In this document: positions 1-10,996 of the stretch, in pieces
Layout of the letters: the number at the start of each line of letters is the position of its first letter
Numbering within the stretch: the first letter of the stretch is position 1
NCBI GenBank assembly: GCA_009103225.1
Contig: RHPI01001965.1
Span: 1 to 10,996 of the forward strand
Direction of reading: 5' to 3'
DNA: 10,996 bases
DNA from: Chlorokybus atmophyticus
Lineage: Eukaryota > Plantae > Mesostigma and Chlorokybus algae
Notes under the pieces: model-generated
Database searches by the model: none
What the model was told of the DNA's origin: nothing
Seen by the model: only the letters and a program-made list of their open reading frames with translations
Position numbers and translations under genes: made by a program

Positions 1-1
1 G

Positions 2-2932
2 GCTGAGGGAGTTGGCAACGTGCGACTCCAGTGCAAGGTTGGTAACACACTACGCGAGGTGTTGTTACGCAACGTCCTGCATGTTTCTAAGGCTATTGCG
101 AGTCTATTCTCTGTGAGGGTTGCGGAGCGCTTAGGCGCGGAGATCCTATTTCGGAAGGGTGGCTGCACAGTCATCCTTGATGGGGTCGTGCACATGGTTG
201 GAATCGCTGATCCGGGAGGGCTCTACCACGTGGAGCAGCCTCAAGACAGAGACATTCAAGCCATGGTGGTGAAGGACAAGGAGTCGCCAACATTGTGGCA
301 TCGAAGGTTCGGGCATCTCAGCTACGTCAACCTCACTCGCCTTGTCGCTGAGAAGATGGTCAAGGGCATCCATCTCAGCACAGAAGAACTCAAGACAGCA
401 TCAGGTGCACTTTGTGAACCATGTCTGGTTGCAAAGCAGCATGCTATGCCATTCCCATCATCCTCTTCTAGCAGTCAGCATCCTTGCGAGCTTGTGCACA
501 TGGATGTCTGTGGCCCTATGCGCATTGTGGCGAAGGGAGGGGCCAGGTACTTTGCTACATTCCTCGACGACTACAGCAAGCTGTCCATCATCTTTCCATT
601 GACGCTCAAGTCAGAAGTTGCTGGAGCTGTGCGCACAGTTGTGGCCTTGTTGGAGACCCAGTCTGGCAACAAGATGAAGGCAATGAGGAGTGATCGAGGA
701 GGGGAGTACATCAACAAGGAGTTGAAGGAGTTCTTCGCCAGCAAGGGCATACGCCACGAGACAACGGCACCCTACACCCCGCAGCAGAATGGAGCAGCTG
801 AACGCCTCAACAGGACACTCTTGGAGCGTGTTCGAGCCATGCTCAACGACACAAAGATGGAAGACAGTTTGTGGAAGGAGGCGGTACTCACTGCCAACTA
901 CATCCGCAACAGGTCTCCGGTGAGCTCAGAGCAGAAGACTCCGTGGGAGCACTTCTATGGAGCCACACCAGATGTGAGTGGTATGCGTGTGTTTGGATGC
1001 ACGGCATATGCACTAGTGCCTAAACAGCTCAGGCACAAGCTGGAGCCGGTCAGCAAGAAGGGCATCTTCGTTGGCTATGAACCGGGTTCCAAGGCTTACA
1101 GGATCTTGCTCGAGGACACTCAGAAGATCATTGTGAGCAGAGAGGTGGTTTTCCACGAGGGATTATCACAACCAGAAGCAGGCTTCTTTCCTGAAGATGA
1201 AGCACAGCCGGAGCATCCTGAAACAGTGGAGGCTACAGGCAAGGCCATCATCAACAATAAGGGTGAGCAGGACTCAGCTGTAGCAGGCCAGGAGGAGCCG
1301 CACCTGCAGCAGGAGCACGCAGCTCGGAGATACCCAATGAGGGAGAGAAAGGCACCTGACTTTTTACACAAGGCACACGTCGCCAGTGTGCACAATGAGG
1401 AGCCAAGCACCTACGAGGAGGCATTGTTAGCACCAGATGCGGAGCAATGGCAGCGTGCTATGGACGAGGAGATTGCGTCACTCCATGCCAACAACACTTG
1501 GTCACTGGAGCAGTTACCGCAAGGAGTGAAGACCATTCCAGTGAAATGGGTCTTCAAGGTGAAGCGTGATGGTCAGGGCAACATTGAGCGCTACAAGGCA
1601 AGACTGGTGGCAAAGGGCTTCTTGCAGCAGGAAGGTGTGGACTTCAACGAAGTGTTTGCACCTGCAAGTAAGCATACCACCTTCCGTGCACTGCTAGCTG
1701 TGGTTGCTGCTGAAGACCTAGAGCTGCATCACCTGGATGTGAAGACTGCCTTCCTCTACGGAGAGCTGGAGGAGGAGATCTTCATCGAGCAACCACCTGG
1801 ATATGAAGAAGGGGAGAGAGGCACAGCGTGCAAGCTGATCAAGGCACTGTACGGGCTGCGACAGGCACCGCGTATGTGGCACATCAAGCTCACCAAGGAG
1901 CTGGAGGCACTTGGCTTCACCGCATCCTCTGCAGACCCTGGGCTCTTCATCCATGCAGACAACAAGGTCTGGCTGCTCGTGTATGTTGATGATATCATCA
2001 TCACCGCCAGGCAGGTGCACCACCTGCAGGAGACGAAACTTGCTCTACAGCAAGCATTCTCAGTTCGTGATCTTGGAGAGGCCAAGTGGTTCCTTGGCAT
2101 GGTGATTGAGCGCGACAGGGCGGCTCGCACAATCAAGATCAGTCAGGAGCAGATGGTGAGAAGACTCGTCACCAAGTTTGGGCTCACTGAAGCGAAGACC
2201 AAGACCACACCGTTGGCACTTGGCACTGCCCTCATCAAGGCAAAGGATGAGGAGGTACTCGACAAGGCTCAGTATCCATATGGTGAGCTGGTAGGCAGCA
2301 TGCTCTATCTGGCAGTGTGCACACGTCCCGATGTTGCACATGCTGTGGGAGTACTTGCTCGCTACATGTCTGCACCGAGCATGGAGCACTGGAGAGCAGC
2401 AAAGGGAGTACTACGCTATGTTGCTGGGAGCGCAACAGTTGGCATCAAGTTTGGGAGCGGGAGCACTGAGTTGGAGGGCTACTGCGACTCGGACTTTGCT
2501 GGTGACCTCAACAGCAGGAGGTCCACTACAGGCTACGTCTTCAAGCTGAACGGAGGCGTGGTGAGCTGGAACAGCAGGCTGCAGCCAACAACAGCAGCAT
2601 CTACATCAGAGGCTGAGTACATGGCAGCGGCAGCAGCAGTGAAGGAGGCACTCTGGCTTCGCAAGCTCATGGCAGACTTGGAGCACCCCATGGCGTGCAT
2701 CGTCATCAACTGTGACAACCAAGGAGCCATCAAGTTGTTGAAGCACCCTATCGCCTCGGCAAGGACGAAGCACATTGATGTCATGCATCACTTTGTGCGT
2801 GACAGAGTCACAAGGAAGGAGGTGGAGTTCCAGTACTGCAACACCGAGGGCATGCTGGCGGACTTCATGACAAAGCCATTGTCACCACTCAAGTTCAAGA
2901 CTTGTTGTGCAGGACTTGGCATCTGTGTTTGA
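2..2932 (+). CDS. pol: Copia Gag-Pol polyprotein, C-terminal part (end of protease, integrase, reverse transcriptase, RNase H); 5'-partial, uninterrupted
   Basis: The frame is open from base 2. Integrase motifs: LWHRRFGH...CEPC, HMDVCGP, SDRGGEY, NGAAERLNRTL. RT motifs: YKARLVAKGF, LDVKTAFL, LYGLRQAPR, YVDD. RNase H motifs: YCDSDFAGD, EAEYMA, CDNQGA, KHIDV, ADFMTKPL. Stop TGA at 2930-2932. Confidence 0.97.
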   Translation, partial: AEGVGNVRLQCKVGNTLREVLLRNVLHVSKAIASLFSVRVAERLGAEILFRKGGCTVILDGVVHMVGIADPGGLYHVEQPQDRDIQAMVVKDKESPTLWHRRFGHLSYVNLTRLVAEKMVKGIHLSTEELKTASGALCEPCLVAKQHAMPFPSSSSSSQHPCELVHMDVCGPMRIVAKGGARYFATFLDDYSKLSIIFPLTLKSEVAGAVRTVVALLETQSGNKMKAMRSDRGGEYINKELKEFFASKGIRHETTAPYTPQQNGAAERLNRTLLERVRAMLNDTKMEDSLWKEAVLTANYIRNRSPVSSEQKTPWEHFYGATPDVSGMRVFGCTAYALVPKQLRHKLEPVSKKGIFVGYEPGSKAYRILLEDTQKIIVSREVVFHEGLSQPEAGFFPEDEAQPEHPETVEATGKAIINNKGEQDSAVAGQEEPHLQQEHAARRYPMRERKAPDFLHKAHVASVHNEEPSTYEEALLAPDAEQWQRAMDEEIASLHANNTWSLEQLPQGVKTIPVKWVFKVKRDGQGNIERYKARLVAKGFLQQEGVDFNEVFAPASKHTTFRALLAVVAAEDLELHHLDVKTAFLYGELEEEIFIEQPPGYEEGERGTACKLIKALYGLRQAPRMWHIKLTKELEALGFTASSADPGLFIHADNKVWLLVYVDDIIITARQVHHLQETKLALQQAFSVRDLGEAKWFLGMVIERDRAARTIKISQEQMVRRLVTKFGLTEAKTKTTPLALGTALIKAKDEEVLDKAQYPYGELVGSMLYLAVCTRPDVAHAVGVLARYMSAPSMEHWRAAKGVLRYVAGSATVGIKFGSGSTELEGYCDSDFAGDLNSRRSTTGYVFKLNGGVVSWNSRLQPTTAASTSEAEYMAAAAAVKEALWLRKLMADLEHPMACIVINCDNQGAIKLLKHPIASARTKHIDVMHHFVRDRVTRKEVEFQYCNTEGMLADFMTKPLSPLKFKTCCAGLGICV

Positions 2933-2969
2933 CTACAGGAGCAAGCGTTGGAGGTCAAGCTGCTCGCGT

Positions 2970-2974
2970 GGGAG
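2970..2974 (+). other. Polypurine-tract position of copy 1 (short: ...CGCGT-GGGAG abutting the LTR)
   Basis: GGGAG lies directly before the LTR start TGTTG at 2975. The same context occurs at 7454-7458 but not before LTR3. Confidence 0.7.
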
Positions 2975-3398
2975 TGTTGAGAGTATTCCTACATACGATC
3001 AGCATCGACCCTCCACACAGGAGTAGAAGGTCGTAAGGACGAGCACTAGGTCCGGACTTAGCAAGATGGCATCGTCGGACCAGACTCCGGACTCCAGACT
3101 GGAGCCTTACTAACTGCTTCGTATCTCCGCGTATACTTACTCATATTAGGCGTGTAAGAGCTTGTTGGAAAGCTCTGGTTGTAAGAAAGACAACGCAGCT
3201 TAGAGCGCGTCAAAAGGCTGAGTATAGCTTACGCAGTGCTTGCAAACGTAGACGTGTGTGTAACTGGCTGGTATAAGAACCAGCGGACAACTTGTAATAG
3301 ATGAATGTGATGTGACTTGTGTATGCTCTGGTGGCGGTAGCTCTGTCTCTGTGTATCTATGCTTGCCTCAACTACATGTGCATGCTAGTCCTTCAACA
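2975..3398 (+). repeat. LTR1 (424 bp), shared as 3' LTR of copy 1 and 5' LTR of copy 2
   Basis: Termini TGTTGA...TCAACA form a 6-bp inverted repeat. It is preceded by the PPT and followed immediately by the PBS. Near-identical to 7459-7883 and 10624-10996. Confidence 0.97.
3153..3297 (+). promoter_or_regulatory. Four TGTAA motifs in LTR1 (3153, 3180, 3259, 3293): candidate chlorophyte-type UGUAA polyadenylation signals
   Basis: The motifs are seen directly. UGUAA is the established poly(A) signal of Chlamydomonas and related chlorophytes; function here is inferred. Confidence 0.4.
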
Positions 3399-3412
3399 GG
3401 TTATGGGCCCAC
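3399..3412 (+). promoter_or_regulatory. Primer binding site complementary to the anticodon-arm region (5' half-molecule) of initiator tRNA-Met
   Basis: GGTTATGGGCCCAC starts with no spacer after the LTR's terminal CA. It is the reverse complement of GUGGGCCCAUAACC in plant-type tRNA-iMet (recalled sequence), not of a 3' CCA end. Confidence 0.92.
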
Positions 3413-3525
3413 ACTACGCTTGAGGAGTGTGAGACTAGCTTGTGTGCATAGTAGTTCTACACTACGGTAGCTTGTTGGTAGCAGAGCCTTGGGTGTCAAC
3501 TGCAAGAAAGGCAGGCTCGACAGAA

Positions 3526-6500
3526 ATGGAGGCGACCTACGACAAGGGGCAGATTGCAAAGCTGGACACCGACAACTACAACACATGGTGCGTGGAGATG
3601 AAGGCCTTGCTCATCCACAAGAAGGTGTGGAAGTACGTTGATCCGAAGGCACCACCACCAACACCAGGAGCGAACACTGTGTGGTCAGAGCATTCAGCAG
3701 AAGCACACTCTTTGCTTGTGTTGAACAGCAAACCGCATCACTTTCCCATGCTCACTGCATGTGAAGATGGTAGACAAGCTTGGGAAAAGCTATCAGCCGT
3801 TTTCAGAGCCAAGAACAATGCCAGAAAGTTGCATCTACGCAAGCAGCTCAGCGCACTCAGGAAGGAGGCAGCAGAACCCATCACAAAGTATGTTGCGCGC
3901 GCGAGAGAGCTGTGGGCGGACCTCATCAACGTCGGCCACAACATGGGGGAGACGGAGGTAGTGCTGGCCATTGTTGCAGGGCTACCAGCAGAGTACGAGG
4001 TCGTCGCAACCCTGCTGGAGACGTCATCATCGGAGTTGACGTTGGACGATGTGCTACCGAAGCTGCTCACCGTGGAGCAGAGGGTTGTGAAGAAGGACGA
4101 GCAAGCGGATGCCGTCGCCTTCTACACCGGCAAGCACGCAAAGAAGAGCAACCATGAAGAGAAGTACAAGGGCAACAAGCCAGGCAATCCTCGTCACAAA
4201 GACCTCACATGCCACTGGTGTGGTTGGAAGGGGCACATTGTGAAGGACTGTAGGAAGAAACAACAGGGGCAACCTAGAGCAAGCACCAGCAACAGCGGCA
4301 ACGAGCACCAACACAAGGAGAAACATGTCGCCTTCACTGCATCCAGTTCGAGGGCGGGCACAGCTTTCTGGGTGGTGGACTCTGGCTGCGATCGTCATCT
4401 CACACCAAACAAGGAGGTGATGGAGGGCTACAGGAAGCTGACGTCCACAATCAAGGTGGCGGGCTTCGGTGGCGAAGTACTGGTGGCTGAGGGAGTTGGC
4501 AACGTACGACTCCAGTGCAAGGTTGGTAACACACTACGCGAGGTGTTGTTACGCAACGTCCTGCATGTTCCTAAGGCTATTGCGAGTCTATTCTCTGTGA
4601 GGGTTGCGGAGCGCTTAGGCGCGGAGATCCTATTTCGGAAGGGTGGCTGCTCAGTCATCCTTGATGGGGTCGTGCACATGGTTGGAATCGCTGATCCGGG
4701 AGGGCTCTACCACGTGGAGCAGCCTCAAGACAGAGACATTCAAGCCATGGTGGTGAAGGACAAGGAGTCGCCAACATTGTGGCATCGAAGGTTCGGGCAT
4801 CTCAGCTACGTCAACCTCACTCGCCTTGTCGCTGAGAAGATGGTCAAGGGCATCCATCTCAGCACAGAAGAACTCAAGACAGCATCAGGTGCACTTTGTG
4901 AACCATGCCTGGTTGCAAAGCAGCATGCTATGCCATTCCCATCATCCTCTTCTAGCAGTCAGCATCCTTGCGAGCTTGTGCACATGGATGTCTGTGGCCC
5001 TATGCGCATTGTGGCGAAGGGAGGGGCCAGGTACTTTGCTACATTCCTCGACGACTACAGCAAGCTGTCCATCATCTTTCCGTTGACGCTGAAGTCAGAA
5101 GTTGCTGGAGCTGTGCGCACAGTCGTGGCCTTGTTGGAGACGCAGTCTGGCAACAAGATGAAGGCAATGAGGAGTGATCGAGGAGGGGAGTACATCAACA
5201 AGAAGTTGAAGGAGTTCTTCGCCAACAAGGGCATACGCCACGAGACAACGGCACCCTACACCCCGCAGCAGAATGGAGCAGCTGAACGCCTCAATATGAC
5301 ACTCTTGGAGCGTGTTCGAGCTATGCTCAACAACACAAAGATGGAAGACAGTTTGTGGAAGGAGGCGGTACTCACTGCCAATTACATCCGCAACAGGTCT
5401 CCGGTTAGCTAAGAGCAGAAGACTCCGTGGGAGCACTTCTATGGAGCCACACCAGATGTGAGTGGTATGCGTGTGTTTGGATGCACGGCATATGCACTAG
5501 TGCCTAAACAGCTCAGGCACAAGCTGGAGCCGGTAAGCAAGAAGGGCATCTTCGTTGGCTATGAATCGGGTTCTCAGGCTTGCAGGATCTTGCTCGAGGA
5601 CACTCAGAAGATCATCGTGAGCAGAGAGGTGGTTTTCCACGAGGGATTATCACAACCAGAAGCAGGCTTCTTTCCTAAAGATGAAGCACAGCCGGAGCAT
5701 CCTGAAATAGTGGAGGCTACAGGCAAGGCCATCATCAACAATAAGGGTGAGCAGGACTCAGCTGTAGCAGGCCAAGAGGAGCCGTACCAACAGCAGGAGC
5801 ACGCAGCTCGGAGATACCCAGTGAGGGAGAGAAAGGCACCTGACTTCTTACACAAGGCACACGTCGCCAGTGTGCAGAATGAGGAGCCAAGCACCTACGA
5901 GGAGGCATTGTTAGCACCAGATGCGGAGCAATGGCAGCGTGCTATGGACGAGGAGATTGCGTCACTCCATGCCAACAACACTTGGTCACTGGAGCAGTTA
6001 CCGCAAGGAGTGAAGACCATTCCAGTGAAATGGGTCTTCAAGGTGAAGCGTGATGGTCAGGGCAACATTGAGCGCTACAAGGCAAGACTGGTGGCAAAGG
6101 GCTTCTTGCAGCAGGAAGGTGTGGACTTCAACGAAGTGTTTGCACCTGCAAGTAAGCATACCACCTTCCGTGCACTGCTAGCTATGGTTGCTGCTGAAGA
6201 CCTAGAGCTGCATCACCTGGATGTGAAGACTGCCTTCCTCTACGGAGAGCTGGAGGAGGAGATCTTCATCGAGCAACCACCTGGATATGAAGAAGGGGAG
6301 AGAGGCACAGCGTGCAAGCTGATCAAGGCATTGTACGGGCTGCAACAGGCACCGCGTATGTGGCACATCAGGCTCACCAAGAAGCTTGAGGCACTTTGCT
6401 ACACCGCATCCTCTGCAGACCCTGGGCTCTTCATCCATGCAGACAACAAGGTCTGGCTGCTCGTGTATGTGGATGATATCATCATCACCGCCAGGCAGGT

Positions 6501-7416
6501 GCACCACCTGCAGGAGACAATGCTTGCTCTACAGCAAGCATTCTCAGTTCGTGATCTTAGAGAGGCCAAGTGGTTCCTTGGCATGGTGATTGAGCGCGAC
6601 AGGGCGGCTCGCACAATCAAGATCAGTCAGGAGCAGATGGTGAGAAGACTCGTCACCAAGTTTGGGCTCACTGAAGCGAAGACCAAGACCACACCGTTGG
6701 CACTTGGCACTGCCCTCATCAAGGCAAAGGATGAGGAGGTACTCGACAAGGCTCAGTATCCATATGGTGAGCTGGTAGGCAGCATGCTCTATCTGGCAGT
6801 GTGCACACGTCCCGATGTTGCACATGCTGTGGGAGTACTTGCTCGCTACATGTCTGCACCGAGCATGGAGCACTGGAGAGCAGCAAAGGGAGTACTACGC
6901 AATGTTGCTGGGAGCGCAACAGTTGGCAACAAGTTTGGGAGCGGGAGCACTGAGTTGGAGGGCTACTGCGACTCGGACTTTGCTGGTGACCTCAACAGCA
7001 GGAGGTCCACTACAGGCTACGTCCTCAAGCTGAACGGAGGCGTGGTGAGCTGGAACAGCAGGCTGCAGCCAACAACAGCAGCATCTACATCAGAGGCTGA
7101 GTACATGGCAGCGGCAGCAGCAGTGAAGGAGGCACTCTGGCTTCGCAAGCTCATGGCAGACTTGGAGCACCCCATGGCGTGCATCGTCATCAACTGTGAC
7201 AATCAAGGAGCCATCAAGTTGTTGAAGCACCCTATCGCCTCAGCAAGGACGAAGCACATTGATGTCATGCATCACTTTGTGCGTGACACAGTCACAAGGA
7301 ATGAGGTGGAGTTCCAGTACTGCAACACCGAGGGCATGCTGGCGGACTTCATGACAAAGCCATTGTCACCGCTCAAGTCAAAGACTTGTTGCGCAAGACT
7401 TGGCACCTGTGTTTGA
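3526..7416 (+). pseudogene. gag-pol: Copia gag-pol single ORF of copy 2 (would be 1296 aa), interrupted by an in-frame TAA at 5410-5412
   Basis: First ATG is at 3526 (MEATYDK...). Gag has the knuckle CHWCGWKGHIVKDC (4210-4251). Protease WVVDSGCDRHLT has its DSG at 4378-4386. IN, RT and RH follow as in copy 1. The ORFs 3442-5412 and 5458-7416 are in the same frame; copy 1 has TCA (926-928) where copy 2 has TAA. Confidence 0.95.
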
Positions 7417-7453
7417 CTACAGGAGCAAGCGTTGGAGGTCAAGCTGCTCGCGT

Positions 7454-7458
7454 GGGAG
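7454..7458 (+). other. Polypurine-tract position of copy 2
   Basis: GGGAG directly before LTR2; identical context to 2970-2974. Confidence 0.7.
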
Positions 7459-7883
7459 TGTTGAGAGTCATTCCTACATACGATCAGCATCGACCCTCCA
7501 CACAGGAGTAGAAGGTCGTAAGGACGAGCACTAGGTCCGGACTTAGCAAGATGGCATCGTCGGACCAGACTCCGGACTCCAGACTGGAGCCTTACTAACT
7601 GCTTCGTATCTCCGCGTATACTTACTTATATTAGGCGTGTAAGAGCTTGTTGGAAAGCTCTAGTTCTAAGAAAGACAACGCAGCTTAGAGCGCGTTAAAA
7701 GGCTGAGTATAGCTTACGCAGTGCTTGCAAACGTAGACGTGTGTGTAACAAGCTGGTATAAGAACCAGCGGACAACTTGTAATAGATGAATGTGATGTGA
7801 CTTGTGTATGCTCTGGTGGCGGTAGCTCGGTCTCTGTGCATCTATGCTTGCCTCAACTACATGTGCATGCTAGTCCTTCAACA
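7459..7883 (+). repeat. LTR2 (425 bp), 3' LTR of copy 2
   Basis: TGTTGA...TCAACA termini. Versus LTR1: one inserted C (7469) and 8 substitutions by manual alignment. No PBS follows. Confidence 0.97.
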
Positions 7884-8673
7884 GAGCGATATCATATCCT
7901 GGTGTCTCCAGGATGTGCCATGTGCCGCCCGTTGAGGTGCCGGGATAGCACCTGAATAGGCCTGGCATGGTGGACTGGCCCAGATGAGCTCGTACTCGCT
8001 CAGCTCTCCTGCACTCAGGGTGCATACATCGCGGTGTATGAAGGGCAGCGGGTACTCAGAGGAGGGACTTATGTCCATCCCGGTCACGTCAAAGCCTGCG
8101 TGGTATAGACCGACACTGGCACCGCCACCGCCGCAGAAAATGTCGAGTGCCCTTGGTCTTCGCGTGCGTCCCAGCTTGTTGTCAAATGGCGTGTATGTGG
8201 TCAAGGCTGGCCGTGGTGCTGGCCAGGGACTAACAATGATGCCGTCGGGGCTTACTTTGCGACTGACGTTCTCCCCTCCGGCGCGCAGAACATGGCGTGC
8301 CCCGTCAACTGATGTGTACGCGAATACGTTGTGCCCTTTGAAGTTGATGGTTTGTGGTCGATCACCGTCATCGAATACTATACGGTGCTGCCCTGCAAAG
8401 ACATTTTTTATTGAACCATGCACATATGATGCGTCCTCAATCTCGCACGCCACGAAGCGATGCTGACCTGACGCTTGCTTGAATGATTCCACAACGCCCG
8501 CATACCATTCCCCATTCAGCGGCCAATGCACCATGACACTCACACCGATCAGCTGCTCGCATCCCAACTTAACTGCGTTCCGCAGCCGATGCAGTGCGCT
8601 GTCCAATGGTCGATGGTCTGCCTCCTCTACAGCGGCCAGGGGATGAAACTGCCCACGCCCACACCGTGCAAGA
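7884..8673 (-). pseudogene. Tudor domain + C5 DNA cytosine methyltransferase fusion gene, 3'-truncated by the copia insertion
   Basis: Tudor-like segment LIGVSVMVHWPLNGEWYAGVVESFKQASGQHRIVFDDGD (after removing a 75-nt intron), ~8552-8340. MTase motif I ALDIFCGGGGASVGLYHAGFDVTGMDI (F at 8138) and catalytic motif IV IWASPPCQAYS (PC at 7970-7965). The frame runs into LTR2 and stops only inside it; motif VI onward is missing. The 5' boundary is uncertain; the frame is open to about 8697. Confidence 0.85.
8393..8467 (-). other. 75-nt GT-AG spliceosomal intron within the Tudor domain
   Basis: Donor CAG|GTCAGC and acceptor TTTGCAG|GG. Removal deletes a 25-aa insert and restores Tudor spacing between WYxG and the GxHxIxFDDGD motif. 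The intron is in frame and stop-free. Confidence 0.75.
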
Positions 8674-8769
8674 CTGCTATGAATGCGACAACAGCTTCAA
8701 CATGCATGAAATAAGCATACGCCCAACATAACATGCAGTGATACGTCGCGGTCCTCTCTTGTGGATTAC

Positions 8770-9137
8770 CTCCACAGCATCCACCACCTGTCCACTAACC
8801 ACATGTCCCGGTGTTGTCCATGTGAAGAAGCGCATGGGTTCCCCTCGCCACTCGAAGCATGAGCGCGAGCACGATTCGCACACGCAATGGAAAAACTCGG
8901 GTTCCTTGCACAGCACTTGGCCGAGGCGGCAGCCAAACACACATCGACATTGTGTGTGGTGTGATGCCAACAAGCAGCACTAAAACCGTGGCACACTGTC
9001 TGCACTCGCTGGCATTCGGTCAAGTGTGCTCGCATTTGCTGCCTACGGCCATTGGCACATACGTACGCATTGCATTGTGGGCACACCAAGCATGATCTCC
9101 TAGGTGAGGGTGATTTAACTGTTGCCGCCGACATCAT
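8770..9137 (-). CDS. Probable upstream exon(s) of the Tudor-MTase gene, Cys/His-rich (putative Zn fingers); exon structure unresolved
   Basis: ATG at 9137. CPQC-x15-HLTEC (9083-9012) resembles a C2HC finger. An overlapping frame (8973-8677) encodes HHTQCRCVFGC...FHCVCESCSRSC. A donor AG|GTAATC at 8769 and tandem acceptors TAG/CAG at 8677/8674 would join this ORF in phase to the Tudor frame. Confidence 0.45.
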
Positions 9138-9272
9138 GCAAAATAGGAATTGGCACGGCTGCCCACAAACTGAGCGAGACTTTAGGGTATGGGCATCAAT
9201 TGAGGGTTGCCATCTTACGAACCTTAAATGGGTCAAACTTCAAGTGAAGCACGACTGTACCTTATACGCTAT

Positions 9273-9296
9273 TGCAGTACCATGCATGGTACTGCA
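9273..9296. repeat. Perfect 24-bp palindrome TGCAGTACCATG|CATGGTACTGCA with further ATGGTACT direct copies
   Basis: Seen directly. ATGGTACT occurs at 9286, 9306 and 9324, and inverted at 9276. Confidence 0.9.
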
Positions 9297-9611
9297 TTAA
9301 CATGAATGGTACTCCACCTGTCAATGGTACTACAGTACAAGGATACTCGCATACTACCACGATCGTAGAGTAATACTGTGCTGTCATGCCATAGAACCCA
9401 GAGCGCTGTCCGAGTTTGTTGCTGTCAACCACGCTCTAAACCAGCGAAGTATGCACTGACTCATGCGCCGGGCAGTCATCATACACATGTACAGCCAATG
9501 CTTCTAACAACAGCAGATCTCTGGTGCACCATGCACCATGCTGCAACAATACATGTACCTACATGGTTCACAGGAAGCCAACACAAAACTACAATACATG
9601 CACAATTGGCA

Positions 9612-10623
9612 TCAAGGCGGGGGCCAAACCACCGCCGACACGTTGGCGTCTTGCATCAGGCGTGGCGACCAAAACGGGTGAGGTTGCTTGCAGAATGGAC
9701 ACGCTTGTAGATTCTTTGATTTATTTGCCACAGTCTTCTGATGTGCTATGATGCAGACATGGCACATCGCTTTCTTGCAACAGGGCGTCTCCCCATCCGC
9801 TGGGGGGGGTGGCTCTTCAATGCGACAAATCAGCACACATGGGGCACGCGGGTGTGCAAGCTGCCTCTGCCACCAAACTCTGTTATCGCGTCGCAGGCGT
9901 AGCGACTCCCATCTGAATGGCGCAGCATAACGCTCCACTGCCTGCTCGATCACCTGACGCCCATCTGCCGCCATACACCACCTGCTGGTCTTGGTGGTCT
10001 CGTCCAGCATGCATTCATCCAGGCCCTCGACATGGCTGTCGTCACTCGTGTACTCCCCCGCATCGTCATTTTCTTCGAGCTTCCACAGAATCAGCTCGAC
10101 GTGCCGTATGACATACAGCCACTGCCAGCCAAAGCATGCCAAGTACAGCTCGAATGGTTTTACTTGCCACCCAGTATGTTTGCTCAGGTAGTGGCACACA
10201 TCTCGACCCGCATTAGTCGACATCGACAGGTACATCTGCTGCAGCAGGTCGAAGTTCTGCTCCGCAGATAGCTCTTGCACATTGCCGGGGTGCTGCGGCA
10301 GCAACAACACCATCATATTGAGGACGGCGAGGGGCAACAACGTACTACGGATGGCCATATCGTGTATGGGTTCCAACCACGGCCGATCCCCAGAGGCTTG
10401 TTTAGACCGCATTCTCCGCGTTTGCTCCCACTTATTGCAAACTTTCGTCACCCACCTTGAGGCATGCCGCATGCGGTGATGCTGCGCGTCTTGGGCGTAC
10501 TGTAGGGTGATCAACTCCTTTGCACTACGAGTCAGCCCCCCAAAGCGTCTGCGCGTCGGTGCTTTAAGCTTAGACAGCTCGTGCCGCACCGGCTGTCTCT
10601 CTGAACGATGCTCAGCAACCACT
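9612..10623 (-). CDS. Unknown protein with C-terminal RING-like zinc finger; 5' end probably removed by the LTR3 insertion
   Basis: The 336-codon frame is open right up to the LTR3 edge. The C-terminus CVLIC-x14-CCKKAMCHVC-x17-CPFC (9839-9690) has RING-like spacing. Stop TGA at 9614-9612. Confidence 0.7.
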
Positions 10624-10996
10624 TGTTGAGAGTATTCCTACATACGATCAGCATCGACCCTCCACACAGGAGTAGAAGGTCGTAAGGACGAGCACTAGGT
10701 CCGGACTTAGCAAGATGGCATCGTCGGACCAGACTCCGGACTCCAGACTGGAGCCTTACTAACTGCTTCGTATCTCCGCGTATACTTACTCATATTAGGC
10801 GTGTAAGAGCTTGTTGGAAAGCTCTGGTTGTAAGGAAGACAACGCAGCTTAGAGCGCGTCAAAAGGCTGAGTATAGCTTACGCAGTGCTTGCAAATGTAG
10901 ACGTGTGTGTAACTGGCTGGTATAAGAACCAGCGGACAACTTGTAATAGATGAATGTGATGTGACCTGTGTATGCTCTGGTGGCGGTAGCTCTGTC
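10624..10996 (+). repeat. LTR3, same copia family: 5' LTR or solo LTR of a separate insertion, truncated by the window end
   Basis: Starts with TGTTGAGAG and has 3 substitutions versus LTR1 over 373 bp. No PPT upstream. Left flank CCACT (10619-10623) is the candidate TSD. Confidence 0.96.

Follow-up and report, generated by a model that had tools for sequence, protein, structure and literature searches.

The window analysed here is a stretch of 10,996 nucleotides from Chlorokybus atmophyticus (assembly GCA_009103225.1, contig RHPI01001965.1). It holds a minus-strand reading frame that joins a Tudor domain to the N-terminal half of a compact C5 cytosine methyltransferase, two further coding stretches upstream of this frame, and long terminal repeats (LTRs) of one Ty1/copia family at both flanks. 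The features, given by position in the window and strand, are:

1..7883, plus strand: tandem Ty1/copia array that breaks the gene, with LTRs at 2975-3398 and 7459-7883
7884..7888, plus strand: GAGCG insertion site, a probable target-site duplication whose second copy would fall outside the window
7884..8144, minus strand: compact C5 cytosine methyltransferase, N-terminal half
8144-8121, 7967-7965 and 7967-7890, minus strand: methyltransferase motif I, catalytic Cys and subfamily signature, respectively
8145..8360, minus strand: open linker of about 72 codons
8361..8392, minus strand: Tudor domain, second exon part (Phe +25, Asp +27, Asp +29)
8393..8467, minus strand: predicted GT-AG intron, 75 nt, in frame, whose removal restores the pocket spacing of RDM15
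8468..8570, minus strand: Tudor domain, first exon part (PDB 7de9, E 7.1e-5)
8525-8523 and 8504-8502, minus strand: Tudor cage Trp and cage Tyr
8746..9100, minus strand: Cys/His-rich coding stretch, upstream (CBX7 chromodomain E 0.11; zf_C2HC_14 E 0.21)
9612..10623, minus strand: neighbouring ORF P0002 of 341 codons, with a weak RING-like Cys pattern at its end, cut by the LTR at 10624

The Tudor and methyltransferase motifs on which the first-pass annotation had based its claim of a fusion (HWP..WYAG..FDDGD, DIFCGGGG, GMDI..EYPLPFIHRDV, ASPPCQAYS and HQDMI) were all found in one frame, an ORF of 272 codons that runs from 8696 to 7878 and enters the copia LTR one codon after HQDMISL. While the single frame stands, the linker, previously put at about 60 residues, measures about 72 from Tudor pocket to motif I, and the frame as read includes the predicted intron inside the Tudor domain. 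In alignment, the last 15 positions of the linker correspond to the N-terminal extension of the enzyme's closest relatives, a subfamily with an inserted methyl-CpG-binding domain (MBD; group A, see below). Since no Met precedes the first Tudor strand, the gene start lies in an upstream exon. The 5' boundary of the first Tudor exon is located further upstream, where 57 splice junctions are possible and none is singled out. Folding the window protein from its sequence alone yielded no usable model (pLDDT 32), and the ESM Atlas clusters that were matched (DNA methylases at 0.84, Tudor-family proteins at 0.76-0.81) serve as leads only.

Six listed sequencing runs hold sampled words of the window, none of them an RNA run; three of the six, from two studies, hold over half of these words. 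Contigs from such runs (denoted X1 to X4) inform on the state of the gene in other samples. The Cys/His-rich stretch at 8746..9100 is split at 8937 by two extra bases, and because X1-X3 lack these bases, the two upstream Cys-rich frames are joined there; the stretch is probably an upstream exon of the Tudor-methylase gene, for which it is our candidate. From 8934 to 8746 on the minus strand, its Cys/His-rich motifs are followed by a W-x-G-x-P-x4-T-W pattern similar to the second half of a chromodomain, which may be a second reader. The neighbouring P0002 is covered by the runs that cover the Tudor-methylase gene, and no homologs were found for it among proteins of 187-597 aa, in IMG/VR, in PHROGs or in NCBIfam. 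Between P0002 and the Cys-rich exon, the sequence is variable and includes a 28-nt imperfect inverted repeat and several short GTAC/CATG palindromes (9257-9312 and around, to about 9590).

That the gene is broken by an insertion at GAGCG, as proposed earlier, is supported: 7883 is the last position of the LTR and GAGCG occupies 7884-7888, and empty-site contigs from X1 and X2, which lack the copia, pass into other DNA exactly at 7884. The LTRs of the array differ at 8 of 424 nt and its internal copies at 58 of 2974 nt; pol of the second unit has an in-frame stop at 5410-5412. A third LTR of the same family, from 10624 onwards (10624-10996), marks a second insertion 2.7 kb away. The array is arranged head to tail with shared LTRs, its units are 98% identical, and its primer site, GGTTATGGGCCC, is presumably of the half-tRNA type of Osser-like elements; a literature search for this site gave no direct confirmation. 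Together with the PDS5-type Tudor and the short predicted intron (see below), this primer site points to an algal host, probably a chlorophyte.

In the empty-site contigs of X1 and X2, the 30 letters past 7884 read in frame as VRRLLLASQV (translated by hand), which ends short of motif VI and matches, in the alignment, the helix before motif VI in relatives. A second X1 contig, of low depth, has lost 37 nt and then reads K-F-V and, after a one-base slip, E-N-V. Of the expectation that the missing half would resume at GAGCG and lead to motif VI, the in-frame continuation was thus recovered, whereas ENV appears only in this decayed X1 copy and after the slip, with about 50 nt covered. One X2 contig, 2521 nt in length, covers the 890 nt of 7884-8773, Tudor and methylase included, without a gap and with 15 differences, and runs about 1630 nt beyond 7884; at the other end, X1 and X2 contigs extend past 10623 by 546 and 160 nt, respectively. 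The window's own copy of the gene is dead.

Tudor pocket, predicted intron and selection on the fusion

The best PDB match of the Tudor domain is 7de9, the Tudor of RDM15/PDS5C, with E 9.4e-4 for the whole ORF and E 7.1e-5 for the Tudor part alone. The 53BP1 Tudors are weaker matches of this part, and the Pfam Tudor matches are sub-threshold (53-BP1_Tudor E 0.025; PTM_DIR17_Tudor E 0.12). In the portion of the literature covered here, RDM15 is described as binding H3K4me1 via W616, Y623, Y641, D643 and D645, of which the Asp pair gives mono-methyl specificity, and as contacting H3R2 with E647 and Q654 (PMC8184781). Read unspliced, the window Tudor has W/Y/A/E/E at +0/+7/+25/+27/+29. Removal of the intron (8467-8393) brings W/Y/F/D/D to these positions, with the exact RDM15 spacing, and matches all five of the five K4me1-binding positions, Phe replacing one Tyr. 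No other GT-AG intron of 45-200 nt within 8301-8560 restores the pocket. The earlier assignment to the PDS5-type Tudors, a type attributed to the green lineage in the part of 10.1101/2025.05.08.652912 that we consulted, is supported by the 7de9 match and by the RDM15 pocket residues at the same spacing. The positions of the H3R2 contacts (+31 and +38, by ungapped count) are occupied by Pro and Gly instead of Glu647 and Gln654, so the H3R2 part of the RDM15 pocket is not preserved. The Tudor is predicted to read H3K4me1.

Differences between the major versions of the gene bear on both the intron and the frame; the tallies refer to the best-supported differences, the best 40 of 103. Of the 13 major-version differences listed, four lie inside the intron, which makes up 75 of 813 nt (p 0.03); each of them would alter a residue if this stretch were coding. 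The 75-nt segment appears, from its sequence, to be spliced out of the Tudor. Among the listed exonic differences, 18 of 28 are synonymous against an expected fraction of 0.33 (p 7e-4), and in the linker this holds for all seven listed (7/7, p 5e-4). The synonymous excess in exons and linker indicates that the fusion was under selection as one frame, and we infer that Tudor and methylase are made as one protein, by splicing and co-translation.

The compact methyltransferase and its MBD-bearing relatives

C5 methylases attack the C6 of cytosine with a catalytic Cys and transfer a methyl group from SAM. The enzyme in the window has retained the SAM-binding loop of motif I (DIFCGGGG) and the Pro-Cys of motif IV (SPPC). 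Its description as a small C5 methylase of phage or bacterial type is supported by a match of the MTase part to phrog_363 (E 1.4e-18), by 332 matching phage records and by 2942 matching representatives (E<=0.001, among 1.84 billion). At the same threshold, 322 proteins among 2227 candidates were found, mostly of 200-250 aa and 45-63% identical; Pfam DNA_methylase reaches 18.3 bits, below the cut-off of 22. The reader module had earlier been contrasted with those of the canonical DNMT1, DNMT3, CMT and DRM families; the 11 PDB sequences that were matched at E<=10 include no chain of these families. Nor is any kin of DNMT1, CMT, DNMT3, DRM or DNMT2 among the 48 PDB sequences that the group A profile matched at E<=1, and a relative gives no more than fold-level matches to these families, at 12-22% identity. 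By sequence, the enzyme is not of the DNMT1/3 type.

The compact phage and bacterial C5 methyltransferases (PHROG 363; actinophage, Paenibacillus phage) are, in most top matches, 50-63% identical to the window enzyme over the N-terminal half, and they share its tight motif I-IV spacing and ASPPCQ. Unlike the window gene, these enzymes stand alone (median 223 aa, n=305), have neither intron nor reader, and lack the signature that follows motif IV in the window. Tandem double compact-methylase proteins also occur (P0123, P0124, P0291, P0294 and P0300).

The closest relatives of the enzyme form a small unnamed subfamily that carries an MBD inside the catalytic domain (group A: P0125, P0126, P0127, P0129, P0287-P0290), with P0253, P0298, P0299, P0301 and P0317 as a sister group (group B). 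Among the 1.84 billion representatives, P0125, P0126 and P0127 are the best single-domain matches after two double-methylase proteins, and P0129 has rank 7; P0287-P0290 were added by profile search. Group A also provides the top six local BLAST matches of the window among 369 N-terminal halves. An IP...R...G..W.H..I signature and the N-terminal extension are common to the window and both groups. Over the 25 residues after the catalytic Cys, the window scores 61 with a profile that was built without it, compared to 75-96 for the members, 34-47 for group B and at most 18 for 526 ordinary relatives. In a tree of 64 N-terminal halves, the window and groups A and B are set apart from 50 others at 99/93, with the bootstrap not settled. 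Without the signature (40 rows, 70 columns), the window does not group with group A, and in a tree of the catalytic core (39 rows, with P0253 and two fragments left out), groups A and B fall within a 17-row branch (95/85) that includes 7 ordinary enzymes, and no single clade is recovered for A or for A+B. All trees were calculated without near-identical cluster members.

In five of the six complete group A members, Pfam recognizes an MBD between motifs VIII and X (E 2e-6 to 9e-10), and the sixth has a shortened insert; motifs VIII-X are all present, by alignment, in the complete proteins of both groups. The group A profile matches MBD2 at E 5e-9, and a model of P0287 (pLDDT 64) agrees with MBD2 at 54% identity and an rmsd of 1.0 over 39 columns. 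In group B, the insert at this position is longer, and Pfam does not call it an MBD. Both groups differ from the window gene in being single open frames of 310-390 aa without a Tudor. The portion of the gene within the window holds no MBD, its other half lying beyond the copia array; by analogy with the relatives, that missing half may include one. The intact MBD-bearing methylases of 310-390 aa (P0125, P0129, P0287, P0288 with P0399 and P0400, P0289 and P0290) are possibly more interesting than the broken window gene.

The group A sequences originate from Logan, JGI, ENA and Tara assemblies. Scans for their DNA motif in IMG/VR, JGI metagenomes and GTDB found no occurrence; the motif is an exact degenerate pattern, so diverged or intron-split members would be missed. 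Group B is likewise absent from IMG/VR by motif and by protein and from GTDB by protein, and 154 IMG/VR loci from profile scans encode ordinary small methylases without an MBD at E<0.05. The MBD and the blank GTDB, IMG/VR and JGI scans suggest that group A lives in eukaryotes or their viruses. Members of group B include the cluster P0299/P0401/P0402, and one cluster comes from a marine 0.22-1.6 micron fraction with contigs of up to 111 kb. The contigs of P0401 and P0402 measure 62-111 kb, those of the group A proteins P0127 and P0400 25.7 and 11.5 kb. None of the relatives found has a Tudor, and no fused protein is among the best 150 representatives. A scan with Tudor and linker gave one stretch passing tblastn and no locus in IMG/VR, probably a short chance match, and 80 pattern matches without any relative in JGI metagenomes. 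The window-protein search of a 5.8-billion set covered proteins of up to 476 aa, and long fusions were covered by the 1.84 billion representatives.

Decayed versions, the carrier and competing explanations

Each run is dominated by one main form that is about 98% identical to the window. Beneath this main form, which has a depth of 74-152, X1 and X3 hold divergent contigs of 80-97% identity at depths of 2.5-8. The depth of a contig does not give a copy number, and strains other than the main one, in mixed samples, could account for the low-depth versions. Although X1 and X3 come from two studies, their low-depth contigs have variants, indels at 8518-8527 and the same loose end at 8460 in common, and at least three versions overlap in X3, with minor variants common to X1. 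Among the defects of these low-depth versions are a stop, frameshifts and altered motifs I and IV. Such a pattern would fit old, decayed paralogues that accompany many nearly identical copies. The recurrence of decayed low-depth versions in two studies thus suggests a multicopy element, a selfish element in an alga of which the gene is probably the cargo. A mobile or virus-derived carrier, which the first-pass annotation had suspected, is accordingly judged likely on these several decayed versions. The window contains no gene for a transposase or integrase and no viral hallmark gene that would belong to the supposed element; both of its flanks end in copia LTRs.

X1, X3 and X4 are labelled with different organisms and hold near-identical window DNA, so the organism that owns it may be a minor component common to these samples. 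Decay of the copies by CpG deamination was considered and rejected: 4 of 17 C>T/G>A changes are at CpG, against a background of 25%.

With moderate confidence, we read the locus as a eukaryotic gene, broken by copia, in which a PDS5/RDM15 Tudor is fused to a phage-type C5 methyltransferase, whose intact protein was likely a cytosine methylator docking to H3K4me1, and which is a probable cargo of a selfish element in the alga. A domesticated single-copy host gene would be a different origin for the same fusion. It would be a 5mC counterpart of the rotifer N4CMT, a captured phage or viral methylase joined to a Tudor, with divergent contigs that stem from other strains or species and with an allele that happens to be dead in this strain. 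We consider this rather unlikely. The same minor variants, indels and loose end recur in two studies at a similar low share and together with stops and frameshifts, which speaks against a single-copy gene, even though one main form per run, about 98% identical to the window, is what such a gene would give and the differing organism labels of the runs make mixed samples probable. An intron and a synonymous bias fit a host gene as well; the window copy, in contrast, was struck twice by one copia within 2.7 kb and bears a further frameshift, its neighbour P0002 is without homologs, and at position 7750 the depth of the LTR, though itself a repeat, exceeds that of the gene by a factor of only about 2.4-4.

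The fusion could also be real without being an H3K4me1-guided writer of 5mC, if the Tudor binds another methyl-lysine or a methyl-arginine, or if the enzyme methylates free DNA of the element and the reader serves, for example, in tethering. We regard this as improbable, since the Asp pair that makes RDM15 mono-methyl-specific is kept at the exact spacing and the full MBD of the relatives, with its match to MBD2, points to CpG methylation as the business of the family. The missing H3R2 contacts and the lack of CpG-type decay of the copies would nevertheless agree with it, as would the literature search, which gave no activity data for the compact family, and the substrates of giant-virus DNMTs, which are given as unknown in the part of PMC11244446 covered here. 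That Tudor and methylase are adjacent by accident, as chimeric debris in a repeat nest and never one protein, is very improbable: the missing fused protein among the best 150 representatives, the missing RNA run among the six listed and the decaying locus could be taken in this sense, but the open 72-codon linker with its synonymous differences (7/7 listed), the ungapped X2 contig across both domains and the divergent versions that include both domains argue against it.

If the locus is a former H3K4me1-docking methylator carried by a selfish element, as we favour, the Tudor would keep the enzyme at nucleosomes marked with H3K4me1, where its catalytic Cys may act on nearby cytosines for methylation from SAM. 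An MBD, if present, would draw the enzyme to methylated CpG, where it would read its own product and spread or maintain the mark. The element could in this way mark its own chromatin or insertion sites without the host's DNMT1, DNMT3 or DNMT5. In Chlamydomonas, gene bodies are described as the main location of H3K4me1, which is weakly linked to transcription there (PMC13022364, partial text). A broader scenario, which we put forward only tentatively and would not yet bet on, is that a phage-derived C5 methylase lineage moved into eukaryotes or viruses and gained an inserted MBD and, here, a Tudor (perhaps also a chromodomain and zinc fingers), giving rise to a self-propagating histone-guided system that is independent of DNMT1/3/5 and spread by selfish elements.

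Known systems and implications

The first-pass annotation proposed an undescribed route to chromatin-targeted DNA methylation, which our comparison, drawn from portions of the papers cited in this section, narrows. The combination of Tudor and C5 methylase is not unprecedented, because some DNMT5b proteins carry N-terminal Tudor and methyl-CpG-binding domains, and the combination of a bacterial methylase with a histone reader has its precedent in N4CMT. DNMT5b thus resembles the window gene in joining Tudor or MBD and C5 methylase in one protein, and differs by a long, spacer-rich DNMT domain and an SNF2 part, whereas the window enzyme is of the compact phage type (PMC9998398). Membership in DNMT5b is made less likely by the close spacing of its motifs and by its 50-63% identity to phage enzymes. 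The N4CMT of bdelloid rotifers, a captured bacterial methylase with a histone reader in a 'histone-read-DNA-write' arrangement, follows the logic that we propose here; it is an N4C amino-methylase with a chromodomain and a host gene that marks transposons, in contrast to the C5 enzyme of the window and its Tudor with an H3K4me1-type pocket (PMC8885841). RDM15/PDS5C has the same pocket residues and spacing as the window Tudor and connects H3K4me1 to DNA methylation (PMC8184781; 10.1101/2025.05.08.652912); as portrayed in these portions, it has no methylase, unlike the window gene, and works via Pol V and siRNA.

ChloroDNMTs are, like the window gene, lineage-restricted algal DNMTs with a Royal-family reader, and the lateral or viral acquisition of orphan DNMTs is a parallel to it (PMC12344493). 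As described there, the reader of ChloroDNMTs is a PWWP domain and orphans are generally without companion domains, in which both would differ from the window gene (PMC12344493). EpiLTRs and other retrotransposon DNMTs share with the window the setting of algal selfish elements and a DNMT beside a chromatin reader (10.64898/2026.05.21.726589; PMC5890265). EpiLTRs carry a chromodomain and a DNMT (10.64898/2026.05.21.726589), and the retrotransposon DNMTs are sister to DNMT4 or belong to DNMT3 or SymbioLINE, and lie in retrotransposon ORFs (10.64898/2026.05.21.726589; PMC5890265). In the window, by contrast, copia is the disruptor and not the carrier, and the gene has a predicted intron. Viral Mariner methylases (PMC3627910), the viral DNMTs of Amoebidium (PMC11244446) and the capture of an MBD by arthropod copia (PMC6673714) are further parallels.

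Within the scope of the literature search, which included part of 10.1101/2021.11.30.470311 and had subscription papers and bioRxiv supplements outside its scope, no C5 methylase of the compact phage type was found to carry a Tudor or an MBD insert; one supplement file of PMC12344493, as far as consulted, contained no Tudor or MBD. The logic of a foreign methylase with a chromatin reader is therefore known from N4CMT, ChloroDNMTs, EpiLTRs and some DNMT5b, and what is new, within the literature searched, is the compact enzyme family with Tudor or MBD readers.

Algal methylase fusions were reportedly described already in the 2011 survey of eukaryotic methylases by Iyer and Aravind. If our reading is true, the family would show that chromatin-guided DNA methylation has arisen independently from a prokaryotic enzyme one more time, and in a very small form. 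With its two different readers, it would also be a counter-example to the orphan DNMTs that are generally without companion domains, as characterized in the covered part of PMC12344493. The intact MBD relatives, single frames of 310-390 aa, offer a testable read-write feedback loop in one short protein, and they bear on the origin of 5mC maintenance and spreading as well as on compact tools for epigenome editing.
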